DNA from: Thermodesulfobacteriota bacterium
Lineage (GTDB): Bacteria > Desulfobacterota > Binatia > Bin18
NCBI GenBank assembly: GCA_964291405.2
Contig: OZ219926.1
Location: 2,752,001-2,816,000, forward strand
Length of the DNA: 64,000 nt
Direction: 5' to 3'
Every line of letters starts with the position of its first letter. Within the stretch, counting starts at the first letter, position 1. Position numbers and translations under genes: made by a program. Under the pieces are notes generated by a model. The model did not search any database. It saw only the letters and a list, made by a program, of their open reading frames with translations, and had not been told where the DNA came from. Of this stretch, positions 29,719 through 60,538 are shown one piece after another.

Positions 29719-29823
29719 ATGTATCCTTCCCCGTTACGTGGCGGATCGGCGTGACTGGATCGTAGTAGGCCGCGCGTTGCAGCCGCTCTCTTATCAGTTC
29801 CCCGCCAGATGTCCTAGAGTGGG

Positions 29824-30696: not shown

Positions 30697-30807
30697 AATG
30701 CACGACAGATAAGGTGCGAACCCTACGCTTGAATTTTCCGGGCTTGTGTCTATTTGTACAGGCGTTCGGACCGGGACTGAACCCACCTTACTGCGGGAAA
30801 TCGACGT

Positions 30808-32052: not shown

Positions 32053-32070
32053 AAAACCCGCCTAACCTCG

Positions 32071-32123
32071 AAAAGAGTAAACGTGTCCGGCCTTTATAGC
32101 TATGGAGGACACATTTACTCTTT
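32071..32123. repeat. palindromic element copy 3, supplies the acyl-CoA dehydrogenase stop codon
   Basis: AAAAGAGTAAACGTGTCC ... GGACACATTTACTCTTT. Confidence 0.75.
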
Positions 32124-33269
32124 ATAGGCAGTGTAGGCTTTCCCAAACGCCTCGCGGGCGACAATGCCCTTCATAACCTCTGGCGTACCGTCACCGATTT
32201 CAAACCCGACGACATCCCGCCAGCGCTGCTCTAAGGGGACTTCCATGCTGTAGCCGTAGTGACCGTGTAAAATCATACAGGCGTGAATCGCCTCGGCAGA
32301 CACTTTCGGGCCCATCCATTTGGCCATGGCCGCCTCTTGGGTATGCCGCTGGCCGCAGTCTTTGAGCCACAGACATTTATAGGCAACAAGGCGAGCCGCT
32401 TCGAGCAGCGTCAGATATTCGGCGACCTGAAACGCCACGCCCTCAAACGTCGCCAGTGGTTTGCCAAAGACTTGCCGCCCTTTGGTGTATTCGATGGTTT
32501 CATCAATCGACTGCTGGGCTGCTCCGACAGCGGCCAAGGCCACCAGGGCCCGGTTAAAATCAAAGGCAATCATGGCCTGATAAAAGCCGCCGCTCTCATC
32601 TCCTACCAGATAAGCGGCCGGAATACGCACATTATCAAAAAACAGTGAGCCGCGTTGATGCAGCCGAGCCCCGGCACTGTTATACACCTGACGTGAGACA
32701 CCGGGCGCGTCAAAGGGAACCAGAAAGGCGGAAATGCCCCGCGCCCCACCCCCGGCTGTCCTGGCCAAGACCAGCCCGGCGTCCGCATTGCCGGCAAAGG
32801 TGATGCTGGCCTTCTCTCCGTTCAGCACATACGCGTCGCCGGTTTTGACAGCGCGGGCCGTGATATTGGCAGCGTCCGAGCCTGCCGCCGGCTCGGTCAG
32901 CGCAATAGCCATAATGGCGTCGCCCGTTGCCATGCGGGGCAACCATTCGGCTTGGACCTCGGGCCGGGCGTAAGCGGCCAGCAATTCGGCGATCATCATC
33001 CCAAGCTGGAGAAAGAGACTGTAATTGAAATCGCCGCGCGACAGCTCCTCGTTCATAATGCCACAGGTGACAAAGTCTGCATTCTGGCCGCCAAACTGCT
33101 CTGGCACGCGCAGGCCAAAGATGCCGAGTTCAGCGACTTCCCGAATCTCCGCTCTACCGATCTTTTCTCCTCGGTCCCAGCGCGAATAATTCGGTAACAA
33201 TTTGTCTTTGGCAAACTGACGGACCGTCTGTTGGACCAAGAGATGTTCTTCAGTAAAGGCAAATTCCAT
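32115..33269 (-). CDS. acyl-CoA dehydrogenase (cyclohexanecarboxyl-CoA dehydrogenase-like)
   Basis: ALTEPAAGSD, NGEKASI, HGHYGY, EIGDGT. Confidence 0.9.
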   Translation of the reverse strand: MEFAFTEEHLLVQQTVRQFAKDKLLPNYSRWDRGEKIGRAEIREVAELGIFGLRVPEQFGGQNADFVTCGIMNEELSRGDFNYSLFLQLGMMIAELLAAYARPEVQAEWLPRMATGDAIMAIALTEPAAGSDAANITARAVKTGDAYVLNGEKASITFAGNADAGLVLARTAGGGARGISAFLVPFDAPGVSRQVYNSAGARLHQRGSLFFDNVRIPAAYLVGDESGGFYQAMIAFDFNRALVALAAVGAAQQSIDETIEYTKGRQVFGKPLATFEGVAFQVAEYLTLLEAARLVAYKCLWLKDCGQRHTQEAAMAKWMGPKVSAEAIHACMILHGHYGYSMEVPLEQRWRDVVGFEIGDGTPEVMKGIVAREAFGKAYTAYKE

Positions 33270-33399
33270 AACAGTTTTCTGTTGGGCTCAGGCTCAAAAG
33301 AAGAGGAGTGTAGACATGAACGCATAGAGCGTCAATGAAGCAGGCGCTTGGCGGTCTGCCTCGCTCAGGGCATACTAACAAGCCTAAGGAGGAGATTGC

Positions 33400-34185
33400 A
33401 TGCCAGAACCAGTTCTCATGGTTGAGAAAGCCGATGGGATCGCGACCCTGACCCTGAACCGCCCACAGGCGATGAACGCCCTGTCTCGTGAACTCCGGCT
33501 TGCCATTGTCAGCACCCTTGAATCTTTGCAAAACGACCCGGCGACCCATGTCGTTATCCTGACCGGAGCCGGTCGGGCGTTCTGTGCGGGTATGGACCTC
33601 AAAGAGCTGAGCCGGACGAGCGAGCCCTTACAAGAACCGCGACCAACACAGGGCAGCATGGACGTGGTGCGAGTCATGGAGGCGTTCGACCGGCCCATTA
33701 TTGGGGCGATCAACGGTTTTGCCATTACTGGCGGGTTTGAACTGGCCCTGGCCTGCGATGTCCTGATCGCGTCCAGCGACGCGCGTTTTGCAGATACGCA
33801 CGCCCGGATGGGGGTCATGCCGGGTTGGGGCCTGAGCCAGAAACTCTCGCGCGTGATTGGTATTTACCGGGCGCGTGAATTGTCTTTGACCGGAAACTAT
33901 CTGTCCGCCCAGCAAGCCGAAGCCTGGGGACTGGTGAACCGGGTTGTTGCTCCTGATGACTTGCTGCCGACCTGTCATGCCCTGGCCAAGGATATGCTGT
34001 CGTGTCTGCCAGACATGCTGCGCAATATGAAACACGTGATTAACGAAGGCTACGCCCGGACGCTCAGCGACGGGCTCCAACTCGAATCAACCGCCTGGCG
34101 TAAGCAGGTTCGTGGCGTCACGCCAGAGGCGATTGCGAACCGGGTCGAAGGGGTGAAACAGCGCGGACGGACGCAGACATCCTGA
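33400..34185 (+). CDS. enoyl-CoA hydratase/isomerase
   Basis: LNRP, FCAGMDL, GGFELALACD. Confidence 0.92.
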   Translation: MPEPVLMVEKADGIATLTLNRPQAMNALSRELRLAIVSTLESLQNDPATHVVILTGAGRAFCAGMDLKELSRTSEPLQEPRPTQGSMDVVRVMEAFDRPIIGAINGFAITGGFELALACDVLIASSDARFADTHARMGVMPGWGLSQKLSRVIGIYRARELSLTGNYLSAQQAEAWGLVNRVVAPDDLLPTCHALAKDMLSCLPDMLRNMKHVINEGYARTLSDGLQLESTAWRKQVRGVTPEAIANRVEGVKQRGRTQTS

Positions 34186-34193
34186 GTCAGCCG

Positions 34194-34219
34194 GGCGGAC
34201 ACGGGGGTCCGCCCCTACC
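34194..34219 (-). repeat. GTAG-family REP element
   Basis: Reverse complement reads GTAGGGGCGGACCCCCGTGTCCGCCC; lies between convergent genes. Confidence 0.7.
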
Positions 34220-34220
34220 G

Positions 34221-35096
34221 CTAGACCCGCCCAATGACCGTGTCACCAAGTTCTTTTACGTAATCGATAATTTCTGTCTCAGTGGCATTGAGTGTGAACA
34301 GGGCATCCCCTTTGGGCGGGAAAAGCAGAATCAAACGATCCACGCCCAGGTCCGCATAACGTTTGGCCTTGTCGAGATCGATCCGTCCAACCGGCGTCAC
34401 GCTGATTTCCAGCTTGCCCAATCCGCTCGGACGTTCATTTTTTTCTCCGGCAGCCTGCAAGCCGTCGAGGCATTTCTTGGTCCCATCGACATCGAGGGCA
34501 AAGCCGTACCAGCCGTCGCCATGGGTCACGGACCGTTGAAACGCCTGGGGGGTCATACCGCCAAACACAACCGGCGGACCGGGCTGCTGGACCGGCTTGG
34601 GGAATGCCTTGACGCCGCTAAAAGAGGCAAACGGTCCCTGATAGGACGGGTCGTCCTGACTCCAAATCGCCCGCATGGCATCAACGTAGTCGAGCGTACG
34701 CGGACCTTTATGGCCGAACGGGGCTCCGAGAGCGTCAAATTCCGGCTTGAGATAGCCAATGCCGACACCAAAGATCAGGCGTCCGCCTGACAGGACATCG
34801 AGGCTGGCCATCTCTTTTGCGAGCACCAGCGGATTCCGTTGCGGTAAAATAATAATGCCGGTTCCCATGCGGATGGTTTTGGTCTGGCCGGCCAGAAAGG
34901 CAAAGGAAATATTGGGGTCGAGCATGGGGTAGGTCGGCGGTAACGGCGAGGGCGGCTCCTGCGGGTCCGGCAACACAACGTGCTCGCCCGCCCAGACGGA
35001 TTCAAACCCAGCGGCCTCGGCGGCCTGTGCCACCCGCGCCGATGCGTCCGGCGTACTGCACGGTCCCATATTGATGCCAAAGAGTCCGAGTTGCAT
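34221..35096 (-). CDS. LLM class, probable F420-dependent oxidoreductase (TIGR03619-like)
   Basis: GFESVWAGEHVV, LAKEMASLDVLSGGRL, PKPVQ. Confidence 0.88.
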   Translation of the reverse strand: MQLGLFGINMGPCSTPDASARVAQAAEAAGFESVWAGEHVVLPDPQEPPSPLPPTYPMLDPNISFAFLAGQTKTIRMGTGIIILPQRNPLVLAKEMASLDVLSGGRLIFGVGIGYLKPEFDALGAPFGHKGPRTLDYVDAMRAIWSQDDPSYQGPFASFSGVKAFPKPVQQPGPPVVFGGMTPQAFQRSVTHGDGWYGFALDVDGTKKCLDGLQAAGEKNERPSGLGKLEISVTPVGRIDLDKAKRYADLGVDRLILLFPPKGDALFTLNATETEIIDYVKELGDTVIGRV

Positions 35097-35147
35097 ATCT
35101 TTCCTCCTTTTTTACTCAGGTGAGACGAGTGCAGGGGCCACGCTGCG

Positions 35148-36020
35148 TTACTTCTTTGGCGCTAACACTTCAATGGCCCGCTCGTCCGGCACCATACCAC
35201 CCTTGGGGCTCAGCGGCATGATACACACGTGTGACGCTCCCGCCTCATAATAGGCCGCCACCCGCTCGCGAATTTTTGCTTCGTCTCCCCAGGCAATAAC
35301 CGCGTCCACGAGTCGGTCACTGCCGCCGTTTGCCATGTCGGCGTCAGTAAAACCGACTTCTTTGAAGCGTTGGACGTAGTGATCGATTTGGAGATAGGTC
35401 TGCATATAACTGCGGGCGGCGGCGCGGGCCGTATCCGCGTCCGACTCCAGCATCACACCCAGCTCGGCACACAGCCACGGTTCCGGCCCCAGTGCCCTGC
35501 GGGTCGCCGCAATTTGCTCAGGCACGGTGAAATAGGTATGCGTCCCCTGAGTCTGCGTTGCGGCCAGCGCAAGCATCTTGGGCATCATCCCGGCCAGCAC
35601 CACAGGCGGGTCGTTTTGTGGGGCTGGTGCGGCGTACGGTACAGCTTTCATCCTGGTCAGATACTCACGTGTGAAGCTGAGCGGCTTGCCATACGGAATG
35701 CCGCGCCGGGCGTTGCCCTGCGCATTACTCACGCCCAGGCCGAGCACAAAGCGGTCGCCGTAGAGCTCGGCGAGCGTCCGGGCGGCATTGGCAATCGCAA
35801 TCGGCTCATACGCATAGGTCACCACAATGCCGGTAGCGATGACCAGACGCTCGGTTTGGCTCAGCAAATACGAGGCAAACGAAAAACTTTCGCGGCCCAG
35901 GGTCTCGGGAAACCACAGGGCACTATAGCCGAGCTGTTCGACTTTGCGGGCGAGCCGGCCGGTCTGCTCGCCCGTAAGGCCATCCAGAAAGGTAAAAACA
36001 CCAGGAGGTCGGAGGTCCAT
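35148..36020 (-). CDS. LLM class, probable F420-dependent oxidoreductase (TIGR03620-like)
   Basis: GYSALW, ATGI, RFVLGLGVS, GSDRLVDA, GASHVC. Confidence 0.88.
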   Translation of the reverse strand: MDLRPPGVFTFLDGLTGEQTGRLARKVEQLGYSALWFPETLGRESFSFASYLLSQTERLVIATGIVVTYAYEPIAIANAARTLAELYGDRFVLGLGVSNAQGNARRGIPYGKPLSFTREYLTRMKAVPYAAPAPQNDPPVVLAGMMPKMLALAATQTQGTHTYFTVPEQIAATRRALGPEPWLCAELGVMLESDADTARAAARSYMQTYLQIDHYVQRFKEVGFTDADMANGGSDRLVDAVIAWGDEAKIRERVAAYYEAGASHVCIMPLSPKGGMVPDERAIEVLAPKK

Positions 36021-36036
36021 ACACTGCTCCCGTGGA

Positions 36037-37080
36037 CTAGCGAAAGGCTGGAATAACCTTGCTGGTAAACAGTTCCAAATGAGGCTGAATCCAGCTCGCC
36101 GGCAGGCCCGGCGGCAGCGTCCACGAATAATAATGCGTCAGCGGGGTCTCTAAGGCATAGTCGCGGATCATCTGAATACAGGAGTCCACATCTACCACCT
36201 GAAACAGACCCGATTCACGTAAAGTATCGGTATCCGGCACTTTTGGAAACAGAGGCATACCGGCCTTCTCCGACCACTCGGCATAGGCATTGACCTGATA
36301 GCGAACGTGTTCGGCGGCTTCGTTCCAGGTCTTGTCCGGGTCTTCTGACGGAATCAGCCAAAAATATCCACCCGCGAGGCGAATATCCGTTGTGGACTTC
36401 CCGACCTTTTCCAAGGCGGTCACATAGCGTTCATACGCCTCTTTCAACGGGCCGACGCCGATATAGCCGTCGCCATACTTTGCCGCTCGCCGGAGTGCCG
36501 GTGGGGTGAAGCCACCGACCCAAATCGGTGGCCGGGGTTGCTGAATCGGCTCCGGGGTGAGCTTGGCTTTGGTCACCGTGTAATATTTCCCCTCAAATGT
36601 CAGGGTTTCGCCCTCCCATAGGCGACGAATGATTTCGAGGCCCTCATTCGTACGGGCGCCACGCTCTTTGCTCGACACATCGAAGCTCTCAAACTCCTCG
36701 ACTTTATACCCAACGCCCACACCCAACTCGAACCGACCACCCGAAATCACGTCCACCGTGGCCGCGTCTTCAGCCATCCGGACCGGATTGTGGAAAGGCA
36801 GGAGTATCACGCTCGTCCCGATATGAATTTTCTTGGTCCGGGAGGCAATCGCGGCGGCAATCGGCATCAGCGCAGGAGAATAGCCATCCTCGATAAAATG
36901 GTGCTCGGACAGCCAGATATCGTCAAAGCCGTTCTCCTCTCCCCACACGATCTGGTCAATGATCTCGTTGTAGAGCTGGTCATAAGGACGCTTCCAGGCG
37001 GGTGGGTTGCGAAAGTCGTACCACATACCAAAGCGAATTTTCGGATTTCCGTTCTCACTCATCGGGCTGTCCTCCTTCAT
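36037..37080 (-). CDS. LLM class flavin-dependent oxidoreductase
   Basis: GFDDIWLSEHHF, AEDAATVDVISGGR. Confidence 0.9.
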   Translation of the reverse strand: MKEDSPMSENGNPKIRFGMWYDFRNPPAWKRPYDQLYNEIIDQIVWGEENGFDDIWLSEHHFIEDGYSPALMPIAAAIASRTKKIHIGTSVILLPFHNPVRMAEDAATVDVISGGRFELGVGVGYKVEEFESFDVSSKERGARTNEGLEIIRRLWEGETLTFEGKYYTVTKAKLTPEPIQQPRPPIWVGGFTPPALRRAAKYGDGYIGVGPLKEAYERYVTALEKVGKSTTDIRLAGGYFWLIPSEDPDKTWNEAAEHVRYQVNAYAEWSEKAGMPLFPKVPDTDTLRESGLFQVVDVDSCIQMIRDYALETPLTHYYSWTLPPGLPASWIQPHLELFTSKVIPAFR

Positions 37081-37287: not shown

Positions 37288-38715
37288 ATGACGGACCAGA
37301 TTGGCTCTGAAACAAATCCCCTCCGCGTCGCTATCTTCGGCTCGGGACCGGCTGGATTCTACGCGGTTGGCGAACTGCTCAAGCAAAAAGATATTGCTAC
37401 TCGGGTTGACCTGTTTGACCGCCTGCCGACTCCCTACGGATTGGTCCGGGGCGGCGTGGCACCGGATCATCAAAAAATTAAAGCGGTCATTCGGCAGTAC
37501 GAAAAATTTGCCAGTCGGCCCGGCTTTCGCTTTTTCGGAAACGTGACCTTTGGCGAAGATATCCGGCTGGCCGATACCCTGGCACACTACCATCAAGTCC
37601 TGTTTTCAACCGGCGCAGAATCCGACCGGCAGCTCGGCATTCCGGGTGAGGACTTGACCGGCAGCGACCCGGCGACGATCTTTGTCGGCTGGTATAACGG
37701 GCATCCTGATTACCGCGATCTCAACTATGATCTGAGCAATGTTGAACGTGTCGCCGTGATCGGAAACGGCAATGTGGCCATGGACGTTGCCCGTATTCTG
37801 GCCCGCTCTATTGAAGAACTTTCAAAAACGGATATCGCCGACTATGCGCTCGAAGCGCTCAAGAAAAGTGCGGTCAAGGAGATCTATCTGCTGGGCCGAC
37901 GGGGGCCGGCACAAGCGGCCTTCACCAACCCCGAGATTCGCGAACTGACCGAAATGCCGATCACCGATCTGGTCGTCGAGCCGAAAGACCTCGAACTTGA
38001 CGAGGCCAATGCCGAATTCCTGGCGCAGGCCACAGAGCCGGTGCATCAGCGCAATATGGATATCCTGACGGCCCAGATTCCCAAGGGCGAGGGAACGGCC
38101 CAAAGGAAAATTCGGGCGCGTTTTTTTGTCTCTCCGGTTGAACTCTACGGGACCGAGCGCGTCGAGGGCATGAAACTCGAGAAAAACCGTCTGGTGAAGG
38201 ATGACAGTGGGACGCTGCGTGCGCGCGGAACCGGAGAATACGAGGAGTTGCCGAATATTCAGATGGTCTTCCGCTCTATTGGCTATAAGGGCCATCCGCT
38301 GAAAGACGTTCCGTTTGACGAGCGCTCAGGGATTATTCCGAACCAGACCGGTCGGGTCATCGACCCGGAAACACAGGCGCCTCTTGAGCGCCTGTACGTG
38401 GCCGGCTGGATCAAGCGCGGTCCGTCCGGCGTGGTGGGTACGAATAAGCCGGATGCGATTGAAACCGTCGGACTCATGTTGGAAGACCTGCAACAGGGCA
38501 AGGTGCCCAATACCATCAACGCCAGCGACGAAGCAGTTCCGGCTCTGCTGGCCGAGAAGGGCGTCCGCTACGTCTCTTTTGCTGACTGGAAATATCTGGA
38601 TCAGATAGAAGTCGAGAACGGGAAAAAAGTGGGCAAGCCGCGTGAGAAGATGACGACCGTCGCGGAGATGCTGGCCGCGCTCGATACCCAGACTTTGCAA
38701 GCTGCTGCTAAATAA
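37288..38715 (+). CDS. fprA: ferredoxin--NADP+ reductase (FprA/adrenodoxin reductase type)
   Basis: GSGPAG, GLVRGGVAPDH, GNGNVAMD, GWIKRGPSG. Confidence 0.9.
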   Translation: MTDQIGSETNPLRVAIFGSGPAGFYAVGELLKQKDIATRVDLFDRLPTPYGLVRGGVAPDHQKIKAVIRQYEKFASRPGFRFFGNVTFGEDIRLADTLAHYHQVLFSTGAESDRQLGIPGEDLTGSDPATIFVGWYNGHPDYRDLNYDLSNVERVAVIGNGNVAMDVARILARSIEELSKTDIADYALEALKKSAVKEIYLLGRRGPAQAAFTNPEIRELTEMPITDLVVEPKDLELDEANAEFLAQATEPVHQRNMDILTAQIPKGEGTAQRKIRARFFVSPVELYGTERVEGMKLEKNRLVKDDSGTLRARGTGEYEELPNIQMVFRSIGYKGHPLKDVPFDERSGIIPNQTGRVIDPETQAPLERLYVAGWIKRGPSGVVGTNKPDAIETVGLMLEDLQQGKVPNTINASDEAVPALLAEKGVRYVSFADWKYLDQIEVENGKKVGKPREKMTTVAEMLAALDTQTLQAAAK

Positions 38716-38746
38716 TGGCAAACCGCCGTGGAAGTGAGTCAACGCT

Positions 38747-39724
38747 ATGAAAGCTATTCGGATACACGAGTTTGGTGAACCAGAGGTATTGCAGCTCGAA
38801 GAAGTCGCGGACCTGACCCCCGGGACGGGGCAAGTCGTGGTGCGCATGCACGCGGTCGGAGTCAATCCGGTTGAGACCTATATTCGGTCCGGTATCTACC
38901 CCAAGCCGCCGACGCCCTTCACGCCCGGGTCGGACGGGGCCGGCGTAATCGAGGCCGTGGGCGAGGGCGTGGACCGGGTTGCCGTGGGCGACCGGGTGTA
39001 TCTGGCCGGTTCTCTCAGCGGCACGTACGCCGAACAGGCCCTGTGCAAACAGGAGCAGGTACATCCGCTTGGCGAATCGGCATCGTTCGCCCAAGGGGCC
39101 GCCGTGTTTGTGCCCTATGGTACTGCCTATCAGGCGCTCTTTCACTGCGGCCATGCCTCACCCGGCGAAACGCTTTTCGTGCATGGGGCTAGCGGTGGAG
39201 TGGGCATAGCCGGGGTACAGCTCGGTCGGGCCGCTGGCATGACGGTCATTGGAACCGCGAGTACGGAGCGCGGGCGCCAACTCGTATCCGAACAGGGCGC
39301 GCAGCACGTTCTCGACCACAGTGCCGCCTCGTACCTGGAAGAAGTGCAGACCCTGACGGATGGACGGGGCGTTGATGTGATTTTGGAGATGCTGGCCAAC
39401 GTCAATCTCGCCAAAGACCTCGACCTCCTCGCCATGCATGGGCGCGTGGTTGTCATCGGCAATCGGGGCGAGAGGAATCAGGGCACGATCGAGATCAATC
39501 CGCGGGCGGCCATGATGCGGGATGCCTCCATCATCGGCATGACCTTACGCAACGCCACGCCGCAGGATCACGTCCGTATACACTCGGCCCTTGTGGCCGG
39601 TCTGGCCAACGGTACGCTCCGGCCCGTGATCGGACAGGAACTCCCCCTGGCCGAAGCCGCCCAAGCCCACCGCGCCGTAAGCGGAGCGGGCAAAGCCTAC
39701 GGCAAGGTGGTGCTGATACCGTAG
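38747..39724 (+). CDS. NADPH:quinone reductase (zeta-crystallin)
   Basis: GVNPVETYIRSG, HGASGGVG, EMLANVNL. Confidence 0.92.
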   Translation: MKAIRIHEFGEPEVLQLEEVADLTPGTGQVVVRMHAVGVNPVETYIRSGIYPKPPTPFTPGSDGAGVIEAVGEGVDRVAVGDRVYLAGSLSGTYAEQALCKQEQVHPLGESASFAQGAAVFVPYGTAYQALFHCGHASPGETLFVHGASGGVGIAGVQLGRAAGMTVIGTASTERGRQLVSEQGAQHVLDHSAASYLEEVQTLTDGRGVDVILEMLANVNLAKDLDLLAMHGRVVVIGNRGERNQGTIEINPRAAMMRDASIIGMTLRNATPQDHVRIHSALVAGLANGTLRPVIGQELPLAEAAQAHRAVSGAGKAYGKVVLIP

Positions 39725-39894: not shown

Positions 39895-39968
39895 GAACTC
39901 TGGAGAGCACCTCGCTACACCACGGAGGAAACTGCTCTAGAGCGTTTTACGATAAGTTGTAGCGGTTT

Positions 39969-40026
39969 CAGTATGCTGAGCGGGAAGTCTTTTGATGTTG
40001 AAATACATGCTTGATACCAATATTGC
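39969..40026 (+). pseudogene. vapBC junction remnant
   Basis: QYAEREVF* overlaps (TGATG) MLKYMLDTNI, the VapC PIN-domain start; then interrupted by a REP. Confidence 0.65.
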
Positions 40027-40041
40027 CTCGGCCCGGGCTCT

Positions 40042-40093
40042 CGTAGGGTGCGCCCTGCGCACCGGGAAGCTGGTGCATGGGATGCACCCTACG
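40042..40093. repeat. GTAG-family REP doublet, second copy
   Basis: Near-identical to 39841-39894. Confidence 0.85.
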
Positions 40094-40182
40094 GAAGGGA
40101 ACGGCTGGCTATACGGAATCGTAAATTGCTCTAGCCGGAACAATAATTCCACCGAAGTTACTTCACAAAAGAGAGGTAACGT

Positions 40183-41145
40183 ATGCCTACAATAAACTTG
40201 TTTTCCACTTATCGGCAGGGAGAGAACCGCGTCACCGCAACTTTCCTGGCTGTCCTCCAACGGCTAAGCCTACTCAACATCGACCGGATTCTCGGAGGAC
40301 TTCTTGAAGAAGACGCATTTAGCCTTGTCTCCTTTGAGAATCAGCCCAAAGGGCAGAGCACAAGACCTGATGCCAGAATTAGAACAAAATCCGCTATTTG
40401 GATTGAAACCAAGACATCTTCTGACGCGGTGAACACCAACCAGATCCAAGGGCATTTGGAAGTCCTTGGAGAAGGCGAGCGCCTGCTATTGCTCACGCCG
40501 GATGCCGATGAGCCCCAGCAATTGCCCGATAATAATAGAGTTATCTGGTCGAACTTCAGACGCTTGGTCGAGATCGTTGAAGGCATTCTCAAGGACGAGG
40601 ATGAGCCTCCTTCCGAACGGGAGGTATTCCTCCTGAGGGAGTTCATAAAGATGATCCGGCAAGACGGACTCACAGGTTCTACCGAGCAACTTATGAGAAT
40701 AGTGCCCTGTGGTCAGAGCCTTGAGATAAACAGAGAATATGGAATCTACTTTCACCCATCAGATCGTAGCTATACGAAACATCGGTTCGTAGGAATCTAT
40801 AAGGACAAGACCGTCCAGGCAATCTGGGAGATTGAGAGTGTTTTTGACGTTGAATACAACGGAGTTGAGTTTGAAAAAATATTGGTGGAGGGGGAGATGA
40901 CAGATGACTACGATGACAGACTCAGATCTATAATCAATGATGCAAAGAGTGAATGTGACTATGACATTCGGACTGGACACCGCTTTTTTTGTGGAGAGCC
41001 TCAAGAGACCCATTATGAAAGGTTGTCGCGCGGTGGCATTCCGGGTGCTCGGTTTCAGAATTTGCGAGAAGTCATAGGAGACCAATTTGACAACTTGGAT
41101 GTAGAGGGCATTGCACAGAGATTAAGAGAAATGACATGGGAATGA
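40183..41145 (+). CDS. hypothetical protein with N-terminal PD-(D/E)XK nuclease-like motif
   Basis: GENRVT...RPDARI...IWIETK...Q; visibly more AT-rich than its neighbours. Confidence 0.6.
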   Translation: MPTINLFSTYRQGENRVTATFLAVLQRLSLLNIDRILGGLLEEDAFSLVSFENQPKGQSTRPDARIRTKSAIWIETKTSSDAVNTNQIQGHLEVLGEGERLLLLTPDADEPQQLPDNNRVIWSNFRRLVEIVEGILKDEDEPPSEREVFLLREFIKMIRQDGLTGSTEQLMRIVPCGQSLEINREYGIYFHPSDRSYTKHRFVGIYKDKTVQAIWEIESVFDVEYNGVEFEKILVEGEMTDDYDDRLRSIINDAKSECDYDIRTGHRFFCGEPQETHYERLSRGGIPGARFQNLREVIGDQFDNLDVEGIAQRLREMTWE

Positions 41146-41394
41146 TGTCAACGAGTACGTCTTTAGTTTACATCGTTCAGGTTGGAGATGTGCTCCACGG
41201 GACGCCCAAGCCTGCTCGGCTATGTTCCACCATGTCGTGAGCGTTGTTTTGCTATCAGAAAATCAGCGAACAGAAAGAGATGCGACATGGACACAACGGT
41301 GCAAGTCCAACAAAGGGGCGATCCTGGTCGGAATGAGAGAGGAAAACTTCTTTTGGCACTAGAGACGGATACGCTTTGCCAAGAGAACGCGCCA

Positions 41395-41805
41395 TCAGGC
41401 GTGGCTGAGGATTGCGTCTGCGATTGGTTTGATTTCGGTTTCGTCGTTCCCGTGCTCACTGATCTTGAACTGCGGGAGTCGCTGAAGTATCCAGGGGATA
41501 TCGTCCTCCGGCAGTTGCTGGGGATCGCCTACCAATACCGGGATCAGGCGGTTACGATAACGGGTGCCGCTCAGAGCGGACTCGATTTCCCATTTTACCC
41601 AGGGTGAGCGCAACGCCTCAGGTGTTAGTAGCACAACCATAGCCTCGGACTCTTCGAGGGCCCGGGCGACCTCGTAGCCAAAATTGTCGCCCGGCATGAG
41701 GCAGCTATTCGCTTCCCAAACTTCAAGCCCGGCATCTTTCAGAACAGCGGAGATGTTCCCGACGAGCGGTTCATCCGTTTGGGCATGGCTGATAAAAACT
41801 TGCAT
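41395..41805 (-). CDS. stand-alone TIR domain protein
   Basis: VFISHA, MVVLLTPEALRSPWVKWEIESAL (catalytic Glu position), LIPVL. Confidence 0.9.
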   Translation of the reverse strand: MQVFISHAQTDEPLVGNISAVLKDAGLEVWEANSCLMPGDNFGYEVARALEESEAMVVLLTPEALRSPWVKWEIESALSGTRYRNRLIPVLVGDPQQLPEDDIPWILQRLPQFKISEHGNDETEIKPIADAILSHA

Positions 41806-41971: not shown

Positions 41972-43282
41972 TCAGAAGTCGGTCTGTCCAAAATCAATCT
42001 GGATATTGGAGTAGACCTCGTTCAGGCTGGATATGTGTTCCCACGGAACGCCTAAGCCTTCACGGCTGTTCCCCATCATGATGGGTTGCAGGTCTTCTCT
42101 GGCAAGAGGCTGGGCATCGGTGAAGACGAGCACGCCGGCCGCAGTGATCTGAGGTTGATCGAACTCGATAAATCGATCCGTCTCCCAGATGGCATCCTGC
42201 ATCGTCAGCGTCAGCATTTTTGTTTCACCCGGTTGGAAGAGTCCGTCGGGTTCCACCTGCATCGTCGGAATCTCGTTTTGTATATCCGTATAGAGGTCTT
42301 GCGTGGCGGGATTGATGAAAGACAGATAACTGGTCGTGAGCTTGCGTAAGACCACCGCTTGATCCGAGGTGTTCGTGGCTTCAACCTGCATGCTCAGGGA
42401 TCGCTCGGTGGTGTTATAGCGCAGCTCTTTGACCTCGGTCCGAACGGCACTCGGGACTGGGAGGCCGGACAGGTCCCACATTCTGGCGGCTTGGTGTGGA
42501 ATGATCGGCGGACGGCCCGAGTTCGTGACCAATAACCCTCCGATAACCAAGACCACCAGGACCACACCAAAAATAAGAGACGTTCGACGATCAGCGGGAG
42601 TGATTTGTTCTTCATCAACTCCGTTAACCAGCAGGGCGTAACGGACGAGCATCGGCCGTCTGGCCCAATAGCCCAGCCAGGCCAGCCCGAGAATCCCAAA
42701 CACGATATGCCAGCCGACAACCCGCCCAAACCCGTAGTGCTCCAGGTCTATGGTCTCGCCGGTTGCCGGAATCTGTACGGTATAGGATGGCGGGGCGTCG
42801 CCCGGCACAACGGTGATCCACTTGGCCGGACCCACCAGCCCGCCCGTACCGGACAGATTAATCAGCGGGTGGACATGATACCGGCCCGGCTCGCGCGCCT
42901 GGAGAATCATCTTAAAATCGTAAATCTCTCCTAATTCGATATTAAACGCGTTCTGGATAAAGCGGTCATTCACCCAGCGTTCTCGCACGGCAAGTTTCGG
43001 ACCCGGAACCAGGACGCCGAGCCATGCCAACTCCGGTATGGTCAGCATGCGTGGCCAGGAGTTCATCGCTCTGAACTTGCCGGTGACGGTCATGGTCTCG
43101 TTGACCGCGAGCCGCTCGTGCGAGAACTCTACGTTGAAGAACGAGATCCCGCGCATGCGGATAAACGGTTCGAGATTGTGCTCACCATGGGCGTGGACAA
43201 CCGGCGCCTGCATAAACGAGGCCCCGAACACGCACAGGCAGGCGAGGCTGACAGCGAGGCGGGCTTTTCCGAGTGGAGACAT
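41972..43282 (-). CDS. pmoB: copper membrane monooxygenase subunit B (PmoB/AmoB family)
   Basis: Signal peptide ending VHA, mature N-terminal HGE, EPFIRMR, PGRYHVHP, ETIDLEHY, two TM helices, C-terminal cupredoxin-like domain. Confidence 0.93.
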   Translation of the reverse strand: MSPLGKARLAVSLACLCVFGASFMQAPVVHAHGEHNLEPFIRMRGISFFNVEFSHERLAVNETMTVTGKFRAMNSWPRMLTIPELAWLGVLVPGPKLAVRERWVNDRFIQNAFNIELGEIYDFKMILQAREPGRYHVHPLINLSGTGGLVGPAKWITVVPGDAPPSYTVQIPATGETIDLEHYGFGRVVGWHIVFGILGLAWLGYWARRPMLVRYALLVNGVDEEQITPADRRTSLIFGVVLVVLVIGGLLVTNSGRPPIIPHQAARMWDLSGLPVPSAVRTEVKELRYNTTERSLSMQVEATNTSDQAVVLRKLTTSYLSFINPATQDLYTDIQNEIPTMQVEPDGLFQPGETKMLTLTMQDAIWETDRFIEFDQPQITAAGVLVFTDAQPLAREDLQPIMMGNSREGLGVPWEHISSLNEVYSNIQIDFGQTDF

Positions 43283-43297
43283 GAAAGCCTCTACCAG

Positions 43298-44041
43298 TCA
43301 GGTTTGACGCAGGACTTTCTGTAGCGGCATAACGCCGAGCAGTTTTCCCAGGCCGATGCCAATCCAATACATGAAGGTGCAGGCGATACCGGCCATTAAT
43401 ATGCTGATCCAGATACGCTGGCCCAGGAAGGCTTGCAGCGTGCCTTCATCTATCCGGCGTAAGTATTCCGGGGTCTGGGGGCGGATGAAGTAATAGCCCA
43501 TCAAATCGGCAACGGTAAAAGTCTTGCCAAACAGCGTCACCGGCTGCAGAAAAGGCATAAGCATCAGCCAGTTCACGGGATAAAAGAGAAAACCCCATAA
43601 AAACCCACCAATCAGACTCGTCGCCAGATAGCTGCGTGACCAAAAGAGAATCAGGTCAAGTGCCAGTGCCATGGGAATCGTTGTGGCCGGCCAGATAAAA
43701 TTAATCGGATAATACTCCATAGCGTAAAAGCTGAAGACCCGACTCAGCCAGGCTCCAATCAAAACGAACACCGCGGTAAACGTGGCTCCCAGCGGCAGAC
43801 GCAGATAGTACCAGGCCAGATAGTGGCCCACCGCAGTGACCAACAGAGCGGAGCTCGGGCCGGCGATCGGCCACCACAGCTTGTCTTTCCAGTCCACCCA
43901 GAAATCCCAGTCACCCATATAGAGCATACGACTGACATGGGGGATAACGGTGAAAAAGCCGATCAGGGCCAGGAGCAGGATGACATCAAAGACCTTGGCC
44001 ATTCTGTGCTGGCCAAGCGCGGCAAGCTCTTCGGCCTTCAT
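43298..44041 (-). CDS. pmoA: copper membrane monooxygenase subunit A (PmoA/AmoA family)
   Basis: GDWDFWVDWKD, RLPLGAT, YPINFIWP, LFYPVNW, TPEYLR.IDEGTL; RBS GGAGAGG. Confidence 0.95.
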   Translation of the reverse strand: MKAEELAALGQHRMAKVFDVILLLALIGFFTVIPHVSRMLYMGDWDFWVDWKDKLWWPIAGPSSALLVTAVGHYLAWYYLRLPLGATFTAVFVLIGAWLSRVFSFYAMEYYPINFIWPATTIPMALALDLILFWSRSYLATSLIGGFLWGFLFYPVNWLMLMPFLQPVTLFGKTFTVADLMGYYFIRPQTPEYLRRIDEGTLQAFLGQRIWISILMAGIACTFMYWIGIGLGKLLGVMPLQKVLRQT

Positions 44042-44120
44042 TGTTTTTAACCTCTCCTGAGGCCCGACCCTTCCTGAACGCCGTGCGTTGCGGCAGTCCG
44101 CCGGTAGACGAGTCGGTAGC

Positions 44121-44972
44121 CTACGATGAGGCCTTCGCCTCGGTTGACGCTTGCTGGGCCATTGCTCCCAGGTTTTCAAAGATGCGTGGAACGGTCTTAA
44201 AGAGCAGCGCAAACCCGGCAAAAAAGAAATACGTCGCCCAGGCAAACGGCCAATGGTAGGGCTGCACAAACAGTTCTTCGGTAATCCAGCTTGAGTGTCC
44301 CAGCTCATTAAACGCCACATTGGCGAACAGGAACCAGCCGCCGGCCGGAAACAGCAGATAGCAGATGGGTATGCCTTTGCCCCCTTCACCGACGTAGAGA
44401 TAGTGTAAACGGTTATAGGCGTACCAGGAGCTGACGCCAGTCATGATGATCAACATGGGAAAGGTATAGAAGAAGAGGGGGATGTGGCTGGGCGTAAAGG
44501 CCGTATCGCGCACCACAATTTGGTGCCACACAGCGTCTTGCTCGGCAAAATAGCTGACCCCAAAGCCAAACGTAGCCGCCACCGCGACCGTAGCCCAGAG
44601 TTTGCCGATGTGGTTGAGCTCGTGCTCGGGGTCGATACGCCCCAACTCTTTTCTCTGAACGGCACAGGTCGAACAGGGTTTGCGATAAGCCGTAAAGCCG
44701 ATGATGGCGGCGGCAATAAGGACGATCCACTCGACGTAGAGCAGACCCAACCAATACTTCGCAAATTCAGGCGTCGTTGCGTCCATACCAACCGGGAACC
44801 ACCACTCGCCCTGCCACAGCCTGATGAGAAACAACGACAGCAGCCCCAGGCCGCCGCCTATGACCAGAAAGCGCATGAACGGCATCTCGCCGTGCGCTGT
44901 TTTGTCGTGCTTCATTTCCCCTATCTGAACGGCTTGACTTTCGACTGAGGCCGACATAGACGTTGCTGCCAT
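44121..44972 (-). CDS. pmoC: copper membrane monooxygenase subunit C (PmoC/AmoC family)
   Basis: PEFAKYW, SYFAEQDAVWHQ..RDTAFTPSH, NELGH..EELF..PYHWPF. Confidence 0.95.
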   Translation of the reverse strand: MAATSMSASVESQAVQIGEMKHDKTAHGEMPFMRFLVIGGGLGLLSLFLIRLWQGEWWFPVGMDATTPEFAKYWLGLLYVEWIVLIAAAIIGFTAYRKPCSTCAVQRKELGRIDPEHELNHIGKLWATVAVAATFGFGVSYFAEQDAVWHQIVVRDTAFTPSHIPLFFYTFPMLIIMTGVSSWYAYNRLHYLYVGEGGKGIPICYLLFPAGGWFLFANVAFNELGHSSWITEELFVQPYHWPFAWATYFFFAGFALLFKTVPRIFENLGAMAQQASTEAKASS

Positions 44973-45117: not shown

Positions 45118-46272
45118 TTACCGATTGTGCTCTTCGTCCTCAAATACCCCCGGCTCATGCCAGCGACGGCTGATGAGCAGTTTCCCGGCGTGGTGTCGCT
45201 TCTTGCGGAAGCCCAACAGGTGAAAAATTTCCATCACAAGCCACCGGGCAATGCGTGGCTCGACGACCAGGGTCGTGGTCTGGTCTGGGTGTCTACGTAC
45301 TCCGGGCAGCAGCGGTAAGAGTCGCTCAAGCCGGAGGTGGCGCAGCCACACCGCGAGACGCAACCAGAACCGCCGGACTGTTCTGACCAGGAAAAACCCG
45401 TCCGCACCCTGACCTTGATAGAGGGGCATCAGGATCTGTCCGGACTCAGGAGCTCGAATCTGGCCGTGACGGTCACGGGCCAAGAGCTGGCCCCGCCTGA
45501 CCGACTGGAAGTTTGTGAAGCCGGGTTCCATCACAAAATCGTCACCGGCTTGGATCAGATGGTGATAGCGGATTTCCAATACCGGCTGCCCGGTCGGCGT
45601 CTTTTCGGGCGCGTCCTGGGGCCGGAGACAGCCAGCGGTTGTCAGGACGCTCCAGATGGCCACAGTATGGTTCTCCACTGCGCTTGGCGAAGCGTGCTGT
45701 CCGCCTTCAAAACCAATGACGACATGTCCCTGCTCGCTCAGATAATTCAGCAGCGTACCCTCTAGCTGTTCTTCCAGGCCAAGAATGACCGGAGCCTGAA
45801 GACCAAAGGCAAAGCGACGGTTGGGCAGGCTATCGCCAATCACCACAAACGGCTGACCCTCGGCAGAGGTGGTGTGCAGGTCGAGGAAGACCGCCGGTCC
45901 CTGGTGCTGGGCCAGCACGGTTTCTATTGCCGTCAGCAGCTCCCGCTGCTCCTGCTCTTCTGAGGTCAGCTCAGCGCGTTGCTCCCTCACCCCTTGGAGG
46001 CGCTCAGATATCCACAGTCGGTTGAAATCCTCATCAATATACCGACAGCCGCGCGCCAGCGCGGCGCGATTTCCGGTGAGCGCGAGTAGCTTGCCTCGAA
46101 AGGAAGGACACCGGGAATGTAAACTGTGCAGCACATCCTGCAAGGCAAAAACCCCAGCCGGCTCATTGCCGTGCATCCCTCCAATACCAATCACGAGCGG
46201 CCCGGGCGTATCGCCGCCATAACTGCCGAGCAGGCGGGGAAAGCCGGGGGACTGGGCGGGAGGGTCGGGCAT
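45118..46272 (-). CDS. succinylglutamate desuccinylase/aspartoacylase (M14) family protein
   Basis: GGMHGNE, DFNR, DLHTTS, FEGGQH, C-terminal biotinyl-like hybrid motif. Confidence 0.88.
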   Translation of the reverse strand: MPDPPAQSPGFPRLLGSYGGDTPGPLVIGIGGMHGNEPAGVFALQDVLHSLHSRCPSFRGKLLALTGNRAALARGCRYIDEDFNRLWISERLQGVREQRAELTSEEQEQRELLTAIETVLAQHQGPAVFLDLHTTSAEGQPFVVIGDSLPNRRFAFGLQAPVILGLEEQLEGTLLNYLSEQGHVVIGFEGGQHASPSAVENHTVAIWSVLTTAGCLRPQDAPEKTPTGQPVLEIRYHHLIQAGDDFVMEPGFTNFQSVRRGQLLARDRHGQIRAPESGQILMPLYQGQGADGFFLVRTVRRFWLRLAVWLRHLRLERLLPLLPGVRRHPDQTTTLVVEPRIARWLVMEIFHLLGFRKKRHHAGKLLISRRWHEPGVFEDEEHNR

Positions 46273-48188
46273 CAGTCCTTCCGGGCTGACCGTTCAAGCA
46301 GACGGGCCGTTAGCGTCAGGATGTCATGCTCGGTCACGATCCCGATCAGCCGCTCGTCCTTGGCCACCAGCAGAGACGCGCTTTTTTCTTGTTGCATCCG
46401 GGCGACTGCTTCTGCGAGGGGTGTCTCGGGTGGAAGCGTCAGCGGCTTCGACTGCATGATCGCCCCGACCGGGACCGGCTCGCTCTCGGCCTGCTGGAGT
46501 GACGGTGTACAGTGACGCAAGACCTCAAAGCACGAGATCAAGCCAACCAGCTTGCCCTGGTCGTCCTCAACCGGGATATGCCGAATCCGTTTCCAGTCCA
46601 TCAGCTTGGCCACCAAGTCTATCGGTTCATTGGGATGGACAGTGAACAGATCGGTCGTCATACATTCTTCAATACGCAGGGTGTGCACTTTCTCACTCCA
46701 GCCTTCTTCAATCTGGGCCAACGGCCACTCATGCACCGGGCTTCCCGCCCATTGTCTTCGAGCGGTGGCTGCGGTCAGCGCGCTCAGCCGCGCCGCTTGG
46801 GTATCAGTCTCCCGCATGTCTGCTAATGAGCGCAAGAGCCAAGACGAACCGGTCCGGCCGACCGTGACCCGTTGTTCGATCACGCCCAGGTACCGCTCAA
46901 TGTCCGCAGGGTTCAGCCTTGCCGTGCGGAGTCCGTGCCGGGCCAGCGGTAATAAGTCCTGGCGAATCAAGTCACGGGCTAGCACGACCTGCCCGTCGAG
47001 CCAGGTAAACTGGGCGTCCAAACCTCTCTGAGCCGCGGCAAGAAAATTGATTTCCGCGTTGTGGAAGGGCATTTTTTGAGCAATATCACCATAGGTTTGT
47101 TGCCCTCCCCGGAGTAAACCGAGGAAAAAGGCAGCGTTCGCGACCTCATCAACAACACTCGGACCGGCTGGCAGGACGCGGTTCTCAATACGGATATGGG
47201 CCTTCCCCCCTCCGATGCCAAAGCAACCTCTATTCCAGCGATACACCGTCCCCGTATGGAGACGCAGGGCTTGTAATTCGGGCAGCCCGCCCTGTTCCAG
47301 TAAGCGCAAAGAATCTTCCCGCGATGGCGTTCCGATCAGGACGCGAAAACGGGCCAAATCTTCCTGGATGAGATCGAGTATCGAGTGGTCTACCCACTGT
47401 TGACCGAAGCTCACCCGTGGCGCACGCTCACGCAGATGGGTGCTGGCGCGGCGGGTATCAACAGATTGCTGAAACAATGGAATCCGCGTCTCGCGCCACA
47501 GCCGGCGGCCAAACAGCAATGGCGAGTTGGCGGCCGCGGCCAGGAGCGGAGCCGTCATGGCCTGGGCGATATTATAACACTGGGGAAACTCGGCTGGCTC
47601 GACTTGGTAGTGGACCTGAAAACTGGTACAGCCCGCTTCCAGCATGACCGAGTCGTGCTTGAGGTTCAGCTCATCCGCGCCCTTGAGCTGAAATTCGTAA
47701 TCGCCCCCACGGAGCTGGGTGAGTATGGTATTCAATTCCCGGTAGCGCGGCTTGGGAGTCATATTGGTCAGCGCCAAGTCAGACTTGCGCAGCGTCGGCA
47801 AAATCCCACTCAGGACCACCTCGGCCCCACACTGGTGAGCGGCAGCCCGCACTGCGGCGAGTGAGCGGTTGAGTTGACCCTCAAGCTGACTCAGGCAGTC
47901 TCCCTCAAATACTAAGGGGTCCAGATTGATCTCCAGATTAAACAGCCCCAACTCAGTGGTGTAATGGGGGTCATCGATCCGCTCCAGGATATCCAGCGCG
48001 AGCGGCGCCGGATGCCAGGCGGCATCCACTAAGAACAGTTCTTGCTCAACCCCAATCCGGTGGACCCCGGATTCGATCAAACCGGTGTCAAGCATGTGCT
48101 CCAGCGCGTGGATATCGCGCAGGAGATGGGTGATAAAGCGGCGGAGTTGGCCTGAATCACTATCGCGCAGTACGTCTTGATTTCCCAC
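46272..48188 (-). CDS. glutamate--cysteine ligase (GCS2)-like protein with C-terminal CBS pair
   Basis: GVEQE, TTELGLFNLE, SFQVH, ANSP, WNR, RIENR; CBS motifs RHIPV and GIVTEHD. Confidence 0.88.
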   Translation of the reverse strand: MGNQDVLRDSDSGQLRRFITHLLRDIHALEHMLDTGLIESGVHRIGVEQELFLVDAAWHPAPLALDILERIDDPHYTTELGLFNLEINLDPLVFEGDCLSQLEGQLNRSLAAVRAAAHQCGAEVVLSGILPTLRKSDLALTNMTPKPRYRELNTILTQLRGGDYEFQLKGADELNLKHDSVMLEAGCTSFQVHYQVEPAEFPQCYNIAQAMTAPLLAAAANSPLLFGRRLWRETRIPLFQQSVDTRRASTHLRERAPRVSFGQQWVDHSILDLIQEDLARFRVLIGTPSREDSLRLLEQGGLPELQALRLHTGTVYRWNRGCFGIGGGKAHIRIENRVLPAGPSVVDEVANAAFFLGLLRGGQQTYGDIAQKMPFHNAEINFLAAAQRGLDAQFTWLDGQVVLARDLIRQDLLPLARHGLRTARLNPADIERYLGVIEQRVTVGRTGSSWLLRSLADMRETDTQAARLSALTAATARRQWAGSPVHEWPLAQIEEGWSEKVHTLRIEECMTTDLFTVHPNEPIDLVAKLMDWKRIRHIPVEDDQGKLVGLISCFEVLRHCTPSLQQAESEPVPVGAIMQSKPLTLPPETPLAEAVARMQQEKSASLLVAKDERLIGIVTEHDILTLTARLLERSARKD

Positions 48189-48824: not shown

Positions 48825-49127
48825 CTACACGGCGTGACAGCGAACCCGCGCACGGATTATGTCGCCGCTCTCGGCCTGCACCTTTGACAGTTCGTAGACC
48901 GTCTGAGCGTTCATCCAGAATTCCGGAGTCTGGCCGAAATACTCGCCCAGCGCAATCGCGGTCTCAGCCGTCACTCCGCGCCGTTCATGGACAATCTCGT
49001 GCAGGCGTGTCGCTGGCAGGCCCGTCTCACGCGCCACACGGCTGACGCTCAACGCCATTTCCTCAATTTGCTCCATGAGTAGCGCACCGGGATGCGTTGC
49101 AATCCGATGGGTCGGTGCCTTCAACAT
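48825..49127 (-). CDS. higA: HigA family antitoxin
   Basis: HPGALL, HTH, RGVTAETAIAL, PEFWMNAQ..YEL. Confidence 0.92.
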   Translation of the reverse strand: MLKAPTHRIATHPGALLMEQIEEMALSVSRVARETGLPATRLHEIVHERRGVTAETAIALGEYFGQTPEFWMNAQTVYELSKVQAESGDIIRARVRCHAV

Positions 49128-49142
49128 AGTCTCGCTCCTGTC

Positions 49143-49382
49143 TCAGTCATAATGGTTGTTCAACTCCACCTCGAAGGCATCCCCTGCCCGCCAGGTGAAA
49201 CATATCCGCCAGCCGCGCGATACACGAATGCTGTACTGTCCGGCGCGGTCTCCCCTGAGGCGTTCAAGCCGATTACCGGGCGGTACTCGAAGGTCTTTTA
49301 TAGAAGCTACATAGTTGATTCGGTCCAGCTTGCTCTGCGCTCTTTTCAGAAGTCTCGCCGGGAACGACCGGTCTCGCACCGG
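49143..49382 (-). pseudogene. higB: HigB toxin lacking its normal N-terminus
   Basis: DLRVPPGNRLERLRGDRAGQYSIRV..WRICFTW...NHYD; usual MIxSF start is missing. Confidence 0.75.
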
Positions 49383-49501
49383 ATGTCTACGAAGTCGAGT
49401 TCTGCGATGATGAAGGGCAAACCTACATGGAACTCGCACTGCGCAACGACCAGATTATCGCGCTCCATACTCAGGGAGAAACGTTAAAGATTGGTGCCTG
49501 A
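49373..49501 (+). pseudogene. DUF4926 protein C-terminal fragment
   Basis: LAPDVYEVEFCDDEGQTYMELALRNDQIIALH; no start codon or N-terminal half. Confidence 0.65.
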
Positions 49502-59434: not shown

Positions 59435-59526
59435 GTGTATAGGGTCTTTAGAGTGTATAGGGTCTTTGGAGTCTTTAGAGTCAAGACTCAATGACTCAAC
59501 AGACCCAACGACCCAACAGACTCAAC
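59434..59526. repeat. degenerate short (about 9-mer) tandem/inverted repeat tract
   Basis: (GAGTGTATAGGGTCTTT)x2 followed by GACTCAA/GACCCAA units. Confidence 0.65.
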
Positions 59527-60442: not shown

Positions 60443-60538
60443 ACATCCTCCTACGAAATGATGTTCTCTCATAGCGGTGAACGTGGAGAGGAATCAAGCC
60501 GAGTCCGGTCCGTTCCAGGCCGAACGGAGTCTCTTGGC

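Follow-up and report, generated by a model that had tools for sequence, protein, structure and literature searches.

What does a copper membrane monooxygenase (CuMMO) oxidise in the Bin18 lineage of Binatia, whose relatives in sponges have been called a methane sink? The question is raised by xmoCAB, an operon at positions 41972..44972 of the DNA analysed here, a 64,000-nucleotide stretch (hereafter the window) of contig OZ219926.1 from a Thermodesulfobacteriota bacterium (assembly GCA_964291405.2, positions 2,752,001 to 2,816,000). According to the reading that we favour, XmoCAB is probably a quinol-driven copper hydroxylase of small organic compounds other than methane, resembling the hydrocarbon monooxygenases (HMO), and it is more probable that the enzyme works in this way than in the manner of particulate methane monooxygenase (pMMO). 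The operon itself is already known; what is new is the residue evidence that bears on the methane label, together with a candidate Cys2His2 site in subunit C.

All three genes lie on the minus strand in the order C-A-B. The first, xmoC (44121..44972, with an alternative in-frame ATG at 44999), encodes the 283-residue catalytic-site subunit, a homologue of PmoC, AmoC and HmoC (Pfam AmoC, E 3e-43). After a gap of 79 bp, xmoA (43298..44041) encodes a membrane subunit of 247 residues (Pfam AMO, E 6e-60), and 15 bp further on xmoB (41972..43282) encodes 436 residues (Pfam Monooxygenase_B, E 1e-98). Thus, the complete C-A-B operon proposed in a sequence-only reading of the window was confirmed by the positions of the open reading frames (ORFs) and by the Pfam matches of all three subunits, which also match solved pMMO and ammonia monooxygenase (AMO) chains. 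A scan of GTDB genomes matched at least 598 stretches, 532 of which were confirmed and the best 80 kept. Within these 80, 21 loci are 78-97% identical to the window in XmoA and the other 59 are 35-47% identical; the 21 loci and the window make up the clade of 22 referred to below. The gene order is C-A-B at all 22 loci, with xmoB split in L012. The operon is intact and under purifying selection, with dN/dS values of 0.06-0.15 in 10 of 11 gene pairs between the window and four relatives (the remaining pair was saturated). A scan for regulatory signals found two promoter-like sites where 1.7 were expected and eight terminator-like sites where 3.9 were expected, none of them usable at the operon ends.

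The copper ligands of the family were located by alignment. In XmoC, the CuC ligands D146, H150 and H163, along with R155, D156 and A158, are encoded at 44484..44537 (minus strand), and the CuD ligands N222, H226 and H240, with the loop that holds L224 (pMMO W229) and S228 (pMMO F233), at 44253..44309 (minus strand). They align with Asp156/His160/His173 and Asn227/His231/His245 of pMMO, a numbering also given in PMC11811604. In XmoB, the CuB His-brace consists of H32, H136 and H138, residues 1-31 being a predicted signal peptide. All nine ligands are therefore present in the window operon, as the sequence-only reading had stated in quoting the three motifs, and the six in XmoC are invariant in 22/22 clade sequences. 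The bis-His (CuA) residues H48 and H72 of M. capsulatus are not retained in XmoB when it is aligned to 3rgb_A. An AlphaFold2 model of XmoC, calculated from a 30-row alignment (pLDDT 83.9, pTM 0.80), has M. capsulatus PmoC (7s4h_C) as its closest Foldseek match (E 1e-10, TM 0.81). The locus therefore has what characterises the CuMMO superfamily: homologues of xmoC, xmoA and xmoB within one operon, the PmoC-like helical fold (in XmoC, the subunit that was modelled), CuC and CuD in subunit C, and the CuB His-brace in subunit B. From these features we infer that XmoCAB is a copper- and O2-dependent monooxygenase.

The position of the clade was determined in a concatenated XmoCAB tree (28 of 40 rows, 12 near-duplicates or long-branch rows having been dropped; LG+C20+F+G4) and in an XmoA tree of 60 rows that included named Methylogaea, Methylocapsa and Methylocystis sequences. 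Both trees are unrooted and were built without named CF8, SAR324, PMO3, betaproteobacterial and archaeal AMO sequences. The labels Pxm (L082, with A-B-C order), TUSC-like, Binataceae-type and comammox-type AmoA are our own assumption, drawn from motifs and record titles. In the concatenated tree, the clade lies at the end of a stem 1.16 long (support 100/100), outside actinobacterial HMO, and a branch of 0.56 (100/100) divides the tree into one part with the USC-gamma pMMO, Pxm and TUSC-like rows and another with the clade and the remaining HMO-side rows. In the XmoA tree, the clade and its sister group fall inside a 30-row HMO-side group (SH-aLRT 100), apart from the pMMO, Pxm and AmoA-type rows. 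This sister group is 53-57% identical to the window in XmoA (4 of 61 protein-search matches) and 56-60% in XmoC (4 of 33 matches), and in a library of 50% clusters the next full-length representative after those of the clade itself is 44% identical. Union with USC-gamma pMMO was rejected (p-AU 3e-50). A sister position to actinobacterial HMO was not rejected (p-AU 0.064), and in the best tree the clade is neither nested in that group nor sister to it.

Profile scores agree with the family models for neither pMMO nor AMO. The three subunits score 145/203/272 bits against cut-offs of 281/318/395 for TIGR03078/79/80, and 220/336/159 bits against 290/336/319 for AmoA/B/C_BACT, all below the cut-offs, although XmoB (335.7) falls only 0.3 bit short of the 336 of AmoB_BACT. 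The clade is outside the pMMO group, has Ala and not Asp at the PmoC 168 position in 22/22 sequences, and stands apart from the AmoA-type rows of a tree that held no named betaproteobacterial AmoA. In these unrooted trees, the deep split places it with the HMO side and away from pMMO, AMO and Pxm, and it carries Ala at the position of HmoC 151. The clade appears to belong to neither the characterised HMO clade nor the pMMO clade. The earlier impression of great distance was borne out, with no nesting at high identity, 42/45/32% identity to HmoC/A/B of Mycolicibacterium chubuense NBB4 and 32-39% to pMMO-type XmoA. Mismatches to standard pmoA primers (PMC5567572), a check suggested alongside, were found for some primers only: pmoA344 has no site in the window operon (6 mismatches at best) and pmoC374 has 3 mismatches there (2-4 across the 22 loci), but pmoA189 has a single mismatch (0-2 in the 22 loci).

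Residues around the copper sites of XmoC point in the same direction as the trees. Ala158 aligns with Asp168 of M. capsulatus and with Ala151 of NBB4 HmoC (RefSeq position 127 plus 24 residues from an upstream in-frame ATG, a numbering that also fits D139, H143 and D149). The position is Ala in 22/22 clade sequences, 5/5 actinobacterial HmoC and 13/13 Binataceae-type sequences, and Asp in 3/3 USC-gamma PmoC. A review (PMC13058606; statements on this source, on PMC8262859, PMC8941161, PMC9999580 and PMC11264602, and on the preprint bioRxiv 10.64898/2026.02.02.703227 refer throughout to their accessible parts) reports that the A151D substitution in HmoC lowered butane activity markedly more than ethane activity, describes the cavity at CuD as Phe-lined and proposes the CuD loop as a possible specificity region. 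Ala158 would tie the clade to a butane-type preference. In the CuD loop, the position of pMMO Phe233 is Ser228 in 22/22 clade sequences and aromatic or Leu in 28/28 comparison rows; both Ser228 and Leu224 are unique to the clade, and Ser228 may widen the substrate pocket.

The sequence-only reading had stressed instead two changes in XmoA, where the motifs are H35-V-S37 and G96-A97-W-L-S-R. Here, H35, M39, D44, D46 and E192 are retained, S37 replaces pMMO H40 and A97 replaces pMMO E100. Both changes are present, but they have no special meaning because other non-pMMO clades share changes of this kind: the Glu100 position is Gln in 5/5 actinobacterial HmoA, Thr in PxmA and Ala, Ser or Thr in 13/13 Binataceae-type sequences, and the His40 position is Asn in 5/5 actinobacterial HmoA. 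Their loss was therefore ruled out as a sign of novelty, and Ala158, Ser228 and the Cys2His2 insertion of XmoC appear to be the more telling residues. Two further positions, XmoC Glu144 and XmoA His35, which we take to be residues of the proposed tricopper site, are not kept in the Binataceae-type clade (among L027-L080), where they are Asn and Asp, respectively, in 13/13 tabulated sequences. In the sister group (P0008, P0010, P0011, P0013), XmoA His35 is replaced by Phe in 4/4.

Comparison with characterised enzymes sets out the same pattern. HmoCAB of NBB4, which acts on C2-C4 alkanes, is like the clade in its C-A-B order, copper ligands, Ala at HmoC 151, absence of Glu100 and His40, and side of the deep split. 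The clade differs from it in XmoA Asp46 (Ser in HmoA), in Ser228 (Phe in NBB4), in the Cys2His2 insertion, and in the absence beside the window operon of the alcohol dehydrogenase, AMP-binding and regulator genes linked to the NBB4 locus. pMMO (M. capsulatus Bath, USC-gamma) and bacterial AMO share the fold and the CuB, CuC and CuD ligands, but from pMMO to the clade Asp168 becomes Ala, Phe233 Ser, Trp229 Leu, Glu100 Ala and His40 Ser; the insertion is absent from pMMO and AMO, and, unlike in those systems, no pmoD/amoD-like gene follows xmoB as judged from gene layout. The Binataceae-type soil CuMMO is separate from the clade (26-30/34-36/28-30% identity in C/A/B).

According to the mechanism that we propose by analogy with the family, XmoC, XmoA and XmoB would assemble as an inner-membrane trimer of heterotrimers, O2 would be activated by copper at the CuC/CuD site of XmoC, two electrons would be drawn from the quinol pool, and a single oxygen atom would be inserted into a C-H bond. 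Because of the tree position and the second-shell residues, the preferred substrate would be a small organic molecule that exceeds methane in size. The leading candidates would be alkanes in the C2-C4 range or slightly above it, or else comparable alkenes, haloalkanes or ketones. Methane would at most be co-oxidised, and dehydrogenases whose genes lie elsewhere would process the alcohol product. The suggestion of the sequence-only reading that the substrate is neither methane nor ammonia is thus favoured by tree position, Ala158 and Ser228, but we found no evidence for the aromatics that it also named. Published placements of Binatia CuMMOs nearer to butane and hydrocarbon monooxygenases than to verified pMMO (PMC8262859, PMC11264602, bioRxiv 10.64898/2026.02.02.703227) support an HMO-like enzyme, the substrate being called unclear in the latter two.

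Several points weigh against this assignment. Identity to the NBB4 enzyme, the one characterised HMO among the sequences compared, is low, in the concatenated tree a short branch (95/95) lies between the clade and the remaining HMO-side rows (actinobacterial HMO, Binataceae-type and others of deep origin), and the split between the clade and the rest of the HMO side has support of only 54/52 in the XmoC tree. Because the stem is long, placement of the clade may be distorted, and the trees are unrooted. The argument from Ala158 extends from a single mutation in a single enzyme. Within the core of the XmoC model, confidence is lowest in the CuD loop (pLDDT 58-69), and that Phe233 itself lines the cavity is our assumption, which the literature search did not retrieve. 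No alkane-pathway genes were found beside the operon in the loci examined, and the literature search found no assay of a clade enzyme. Bin18 genomes are also reported to hold xoxF and methylotrophy genes, which fits methane (PMC8941161, PMC8262859, PMC11264602).

The strongest alternative is that XmoCAB is a true pMMO and its host a sponge methane sink, as published for bin18. Ramirez et al. 2023 (PMC9999580) called bin18 a likely methane sink because 'pmoA' is transcribed; Burgsdorf et al. 2022 (PMC8941161) predicted methane oxidation from sequence similarity, found pmoA expressed in 37/39 samples and listed pmoABC and xoxF for a Bin18 metagenome-assembled genome (MAG) in Table S5; and nearly all Bin18 species representatives are said to carry methylotrophy genes (PMC11264602). 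However, both sponge claims are based on annotation and transcripts rather than on assay, and Burgsdorf et al. applied a TIGR03080 threshold of 92 bits where the curated value is 318 and the window XmoA scores 203. In addition, the pMMO grouping was rejected, Asp168 is replaced by Ala, XoxF also oxidises ethanol (PMC8630023), and the enzyme of the Petrosia MAG may lie outside this clade. The lack of an adjacent methanol dehydrogenase, which the sequence-only reading had used as an argument against methane, is uninformative because xoxF is reported elsewhere in Bin18 genomes. On balance, we consider a true pMMO unlikely.

More improbable still is a non-volatile or host-derived substrate far from the known CuMMO range, such as a halogenated or aromatic metabolite, a methylated amine or a sulfur compound. 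The long stem would suit it, as would the unique Ser228 and Leu224 in a loop proposed as a specificity region (PMC13058606); the verrucomicrobial PMO3, which oxidises acetone but not methane or propane, is a precedent for a switched CuMMO, and the host is rich in luciferase-like monooxygenases and has a ring-cleavage dioxygenase and a dimethylformamidase-like gene. None of those genes, however, is tied to the operon across the clade, the flanks of L001-L017 and L021 being different from those of L018-L020, and direct evidence for any such substrate is absent. An ammonia monooxygenase is barely credible: the AmoA/B/C_BACT models are the top NCBIfam matches, with XmoB 0.3 bit below its cut-off, but these models label methanotroph PmoA too, the clade is apart from the AmoA-type rows, and hao was found neither among the window ORFs scanned nor in the Bin18 MAG that Burgsdorf et al. 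list in Table S5.

In addition to its substrate residues, XmoC of the clade contains an insertion of about seven residues between membrane helices 2 and 3, a feature new here, which forms a candidate metal site, C100-x2-C103-x13-H117-x3-H121 (44610..44675, minus strand). The four residues are invariant in 22/22 clade sequences and positions 101-102 and 104-116 show 2-8 states each, but 129 of 240 XmoC core positions are invariant across the same close-knit set, and the occurrence of the motif in distant sequences is therefore the stronger evidence. The motif was found in 25 of 83 XmoC sequences (the loci and the window, including a few fragments that do not span the region) and in 21 of the 33 matches of a protein search whose query was enriched in the motif. 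When mapped on an XmoC tree built without the insertion columns, it occurs in five deep HMO-side lineages, including two actinobacterial and one archaeal at 28-38% identity, needs at least 3 changes, and does not occur on the pMMO side, in actinobacterial HMO proper or in the Binataceae-type rows. The distant bearers L029 (Actinomycetota MAG), L040 (Pseudonocardia sp.), L047 and P0350 (archaeal MAGs) share C-x2-C...H-x3-H with a spacer of 13, or 8-9 in the archaeal sequences; they are 28-38% identical in XmoC, keep Phe at 228 and form no supported clade with the window enzyme. In the sister group (P0337-P0340), XmoC retains the motif, and position 158 is Thr in 3/4.

The spacing, C-x2-C and H-x3-H, is that of a Cys2His2 zinc site. 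Residues 91-130 are modelled with pLDDT 92-96; C100 and C103 begin a short helix, H117 and H121 are spaced by one turn in the first part of the helix whose far end carries D146/H150, and the fold is helix-loop-helix, unlike the beta-beta-alpha of a classical zinc finger. By analogy with PmoC topology and from the basic residues, the insertion would lie in the cytoplasm, and on this location metal binding would be favoured over a disulfide. Judged separately from the substrate, it is quite likely that the insertion coordinates a single zinc ion at the cytoplasmic side of the protein and serves as a brace for the D146/H150 helix. This proposal presumes that the four Cys/His side chains converge on one ion. 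We found no mention of a CxxC or zinc finger in pmoC/xmoC in the literature covered, including PMC12533140 and PMC13058606, subscription journals lying outside that coverage; an ESM Atlas search with the insertion gave no usable match; and no gene is common to the flanks of the other motif-bearing loci, 15/21 ORFs from L029, L040, L047 and L024 having no informative Pfam match or none at all. A bolder joint proposal would make the clade a distinct subfamily with a widened CuD pocket and a substrate new to the family (e.g. halogenated volatiles or host-derived compounds), its symbiont hosts not being methane sinks, and would have the cytoplasmic Cys2His2 site be old on the HMO side, lost in several branches, and involved in regulation, the handling of copper or the delivery of electrons, not just in bracing the fold. 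Taken as a whole, we regard this as rather doubtful.

The enzyme has been published before. Murphy et al. 2021 (PMC8262859) report CuMMOs in 2/2 Bin18 genomes, one of which, GCA_002238415.1 from the sponge Aplysina aerophoba (order Bin18, Ca. Binatia), they place with the Actinobacteria/SAR324 type. In their Fig. S1, 158 of 168 XmoB residues (51/55, 54/57 and 53/56, about 94%) are identical to those of the window, as read by eye from the PDF text layer with blocks 2 and 3 assigned by row place. The window enzyme is thus an orthologue of the bin18 enzyme, not the identical sequence, and differs from it in nothing material, although Murphy et al. lump it with the Actinobacteria/SAR324 type where we find a separate long branch. 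The other Bin18 genome in that figure carries a Binataceae-type XmoB. The clade is therefore uncharacterised, as the sequence-only reading had it, in that we found no assay, but not unseen. Because its XmoB is orthologous to that of bin18, the window host is presumably a sponge symbiont. Among the 21 other clade loci, 18 are titled Ca. Binatia/Binatota and three 'uncultured Enterobacteriaceae'; we take the latter for mislabels because their flanking genes match those of other clade loci. More generally, the titles of L013, L016, L021, L023 and L056 (Enterobacteriaceae, Klebsiella pneumoniae MAG) are at odds with the CuMMO operons or flanks of these loci, and the records are probably mislabelled or misbinned. 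Among the search matches, P0069 (514 aa) fits both C- and A-subunit models, a possible XmoC-XmoA fusion or read-through artefact, and P0079 (985 aa) has an XmoA domain at its C-terminus.

The surroundings of the operon were scanned in all but four of the 73 non-overlapping window ORFs of at least 70 aa, those four lying in the CRISPR array. CopC/D, PQQ dehydrogenase and HAO families had no match among the scanned ORFs, in agreement with the sequence-only reading, which had noted no copCD, methanol dehydrogenase or hao gene adjacent; PmoD was judged by gene layout, with no profile of its own. In L001-L017 and L021, the operon usually lies between RND efflux/NFACT-R genes and a cluster of quinone reductase, ferredoxin-NADP reductase and luciferase-like genes, and the inserts that follow xmoB (TIR, PIN, nucleases) differ from locus to locus; the flanks of L018-L020 are of another kind. 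No gene accompanies the operon throughout, and context therefore gives no substrate. Recent horizontal arrival or a mobile element was rejected: GC is near the window mean, the chromosomal neighbourhood is the same across the main subclade, there was no phage match, and plasmid matches were all below 60%. At 37288-39724 (plus strand), genes for a ferredoxin-NADP reductase-like protein (18/22 loci) and an NADPH:quinone reductase (19/22) converge on the operon, a possible quinol supply. As a dedicated electron supply they were set aside and are kept as a lead, since they lie on the other strand, with variable inserts between, and neither flanks the operon in L018 or L019 (the L020 locus stops at xmoB), so that shared ancestry explains their proximity.

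Other features of the window are recorded for completeness. The gene after xmoB encodes a TIR protein; it lies in a variable slot (39937-41805, with a GC dip to 0.50) together with a gene for a 320-aa protein lacking Pfam or NCBIfam matches, and in relatives the slot holds TIR, PIN, GIY-YIG, PLD, NERD-helicase or nuclease genes. In 10/22 loci, a glutamate-cysteine ligase (GCS2)-CBS fusion and an AstE/AspA-family gene (45118-48188, minus, in the window) immediately precede xmoC and share its strand, and a HigBA-type toxin-antitoxin pair (48825-49439, minus) lies between the NFACT-R and RND genes. Further away are a complete type I-F CRISPR-Cas system (10652-21861; WYL regulator, cas1, cas2-3, csy1-4 and 26 CRISPR-DR4 repeats) that follows a tRNA/permease/amidase region; an N,N-dimethylformamidase beta-subunit-like gene (24256-26631, plus; PF20254, E 4e-93), preceded by an unannotated 148-aa ORF, which may feed methylamine/formate metabolism; five luciferase-like monooxygenases (28702-37080 and 59522-60472), several with F420-dependent family matches; and a catechol 2,3-dioxygenase-like gene (60708-61937, plus) 16 kb from the operon, whose true start is probably about 100 codons into the ORF.

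At least 46 sponge species are reported to harbour relatives of Bin18 (PMC9999580), which have been called a methane sink on the strength of an enzyme of the type described here. Should the enzyme favour other substrates, the sponge methane-loop model would fail at this point, and pmoA counts in sponge data sets would have been misinterpreted. For the family, the 22 sequenced variants of a clade that has Ala158 and Ser228 by nature offer a direct test of how CuMMOs choose their substrate. The extra metal site in subunit C, if true, would add a new structural element to enzymes that have been studied intensively but in which the supply of electrons and the loading of copper are still unsettled.

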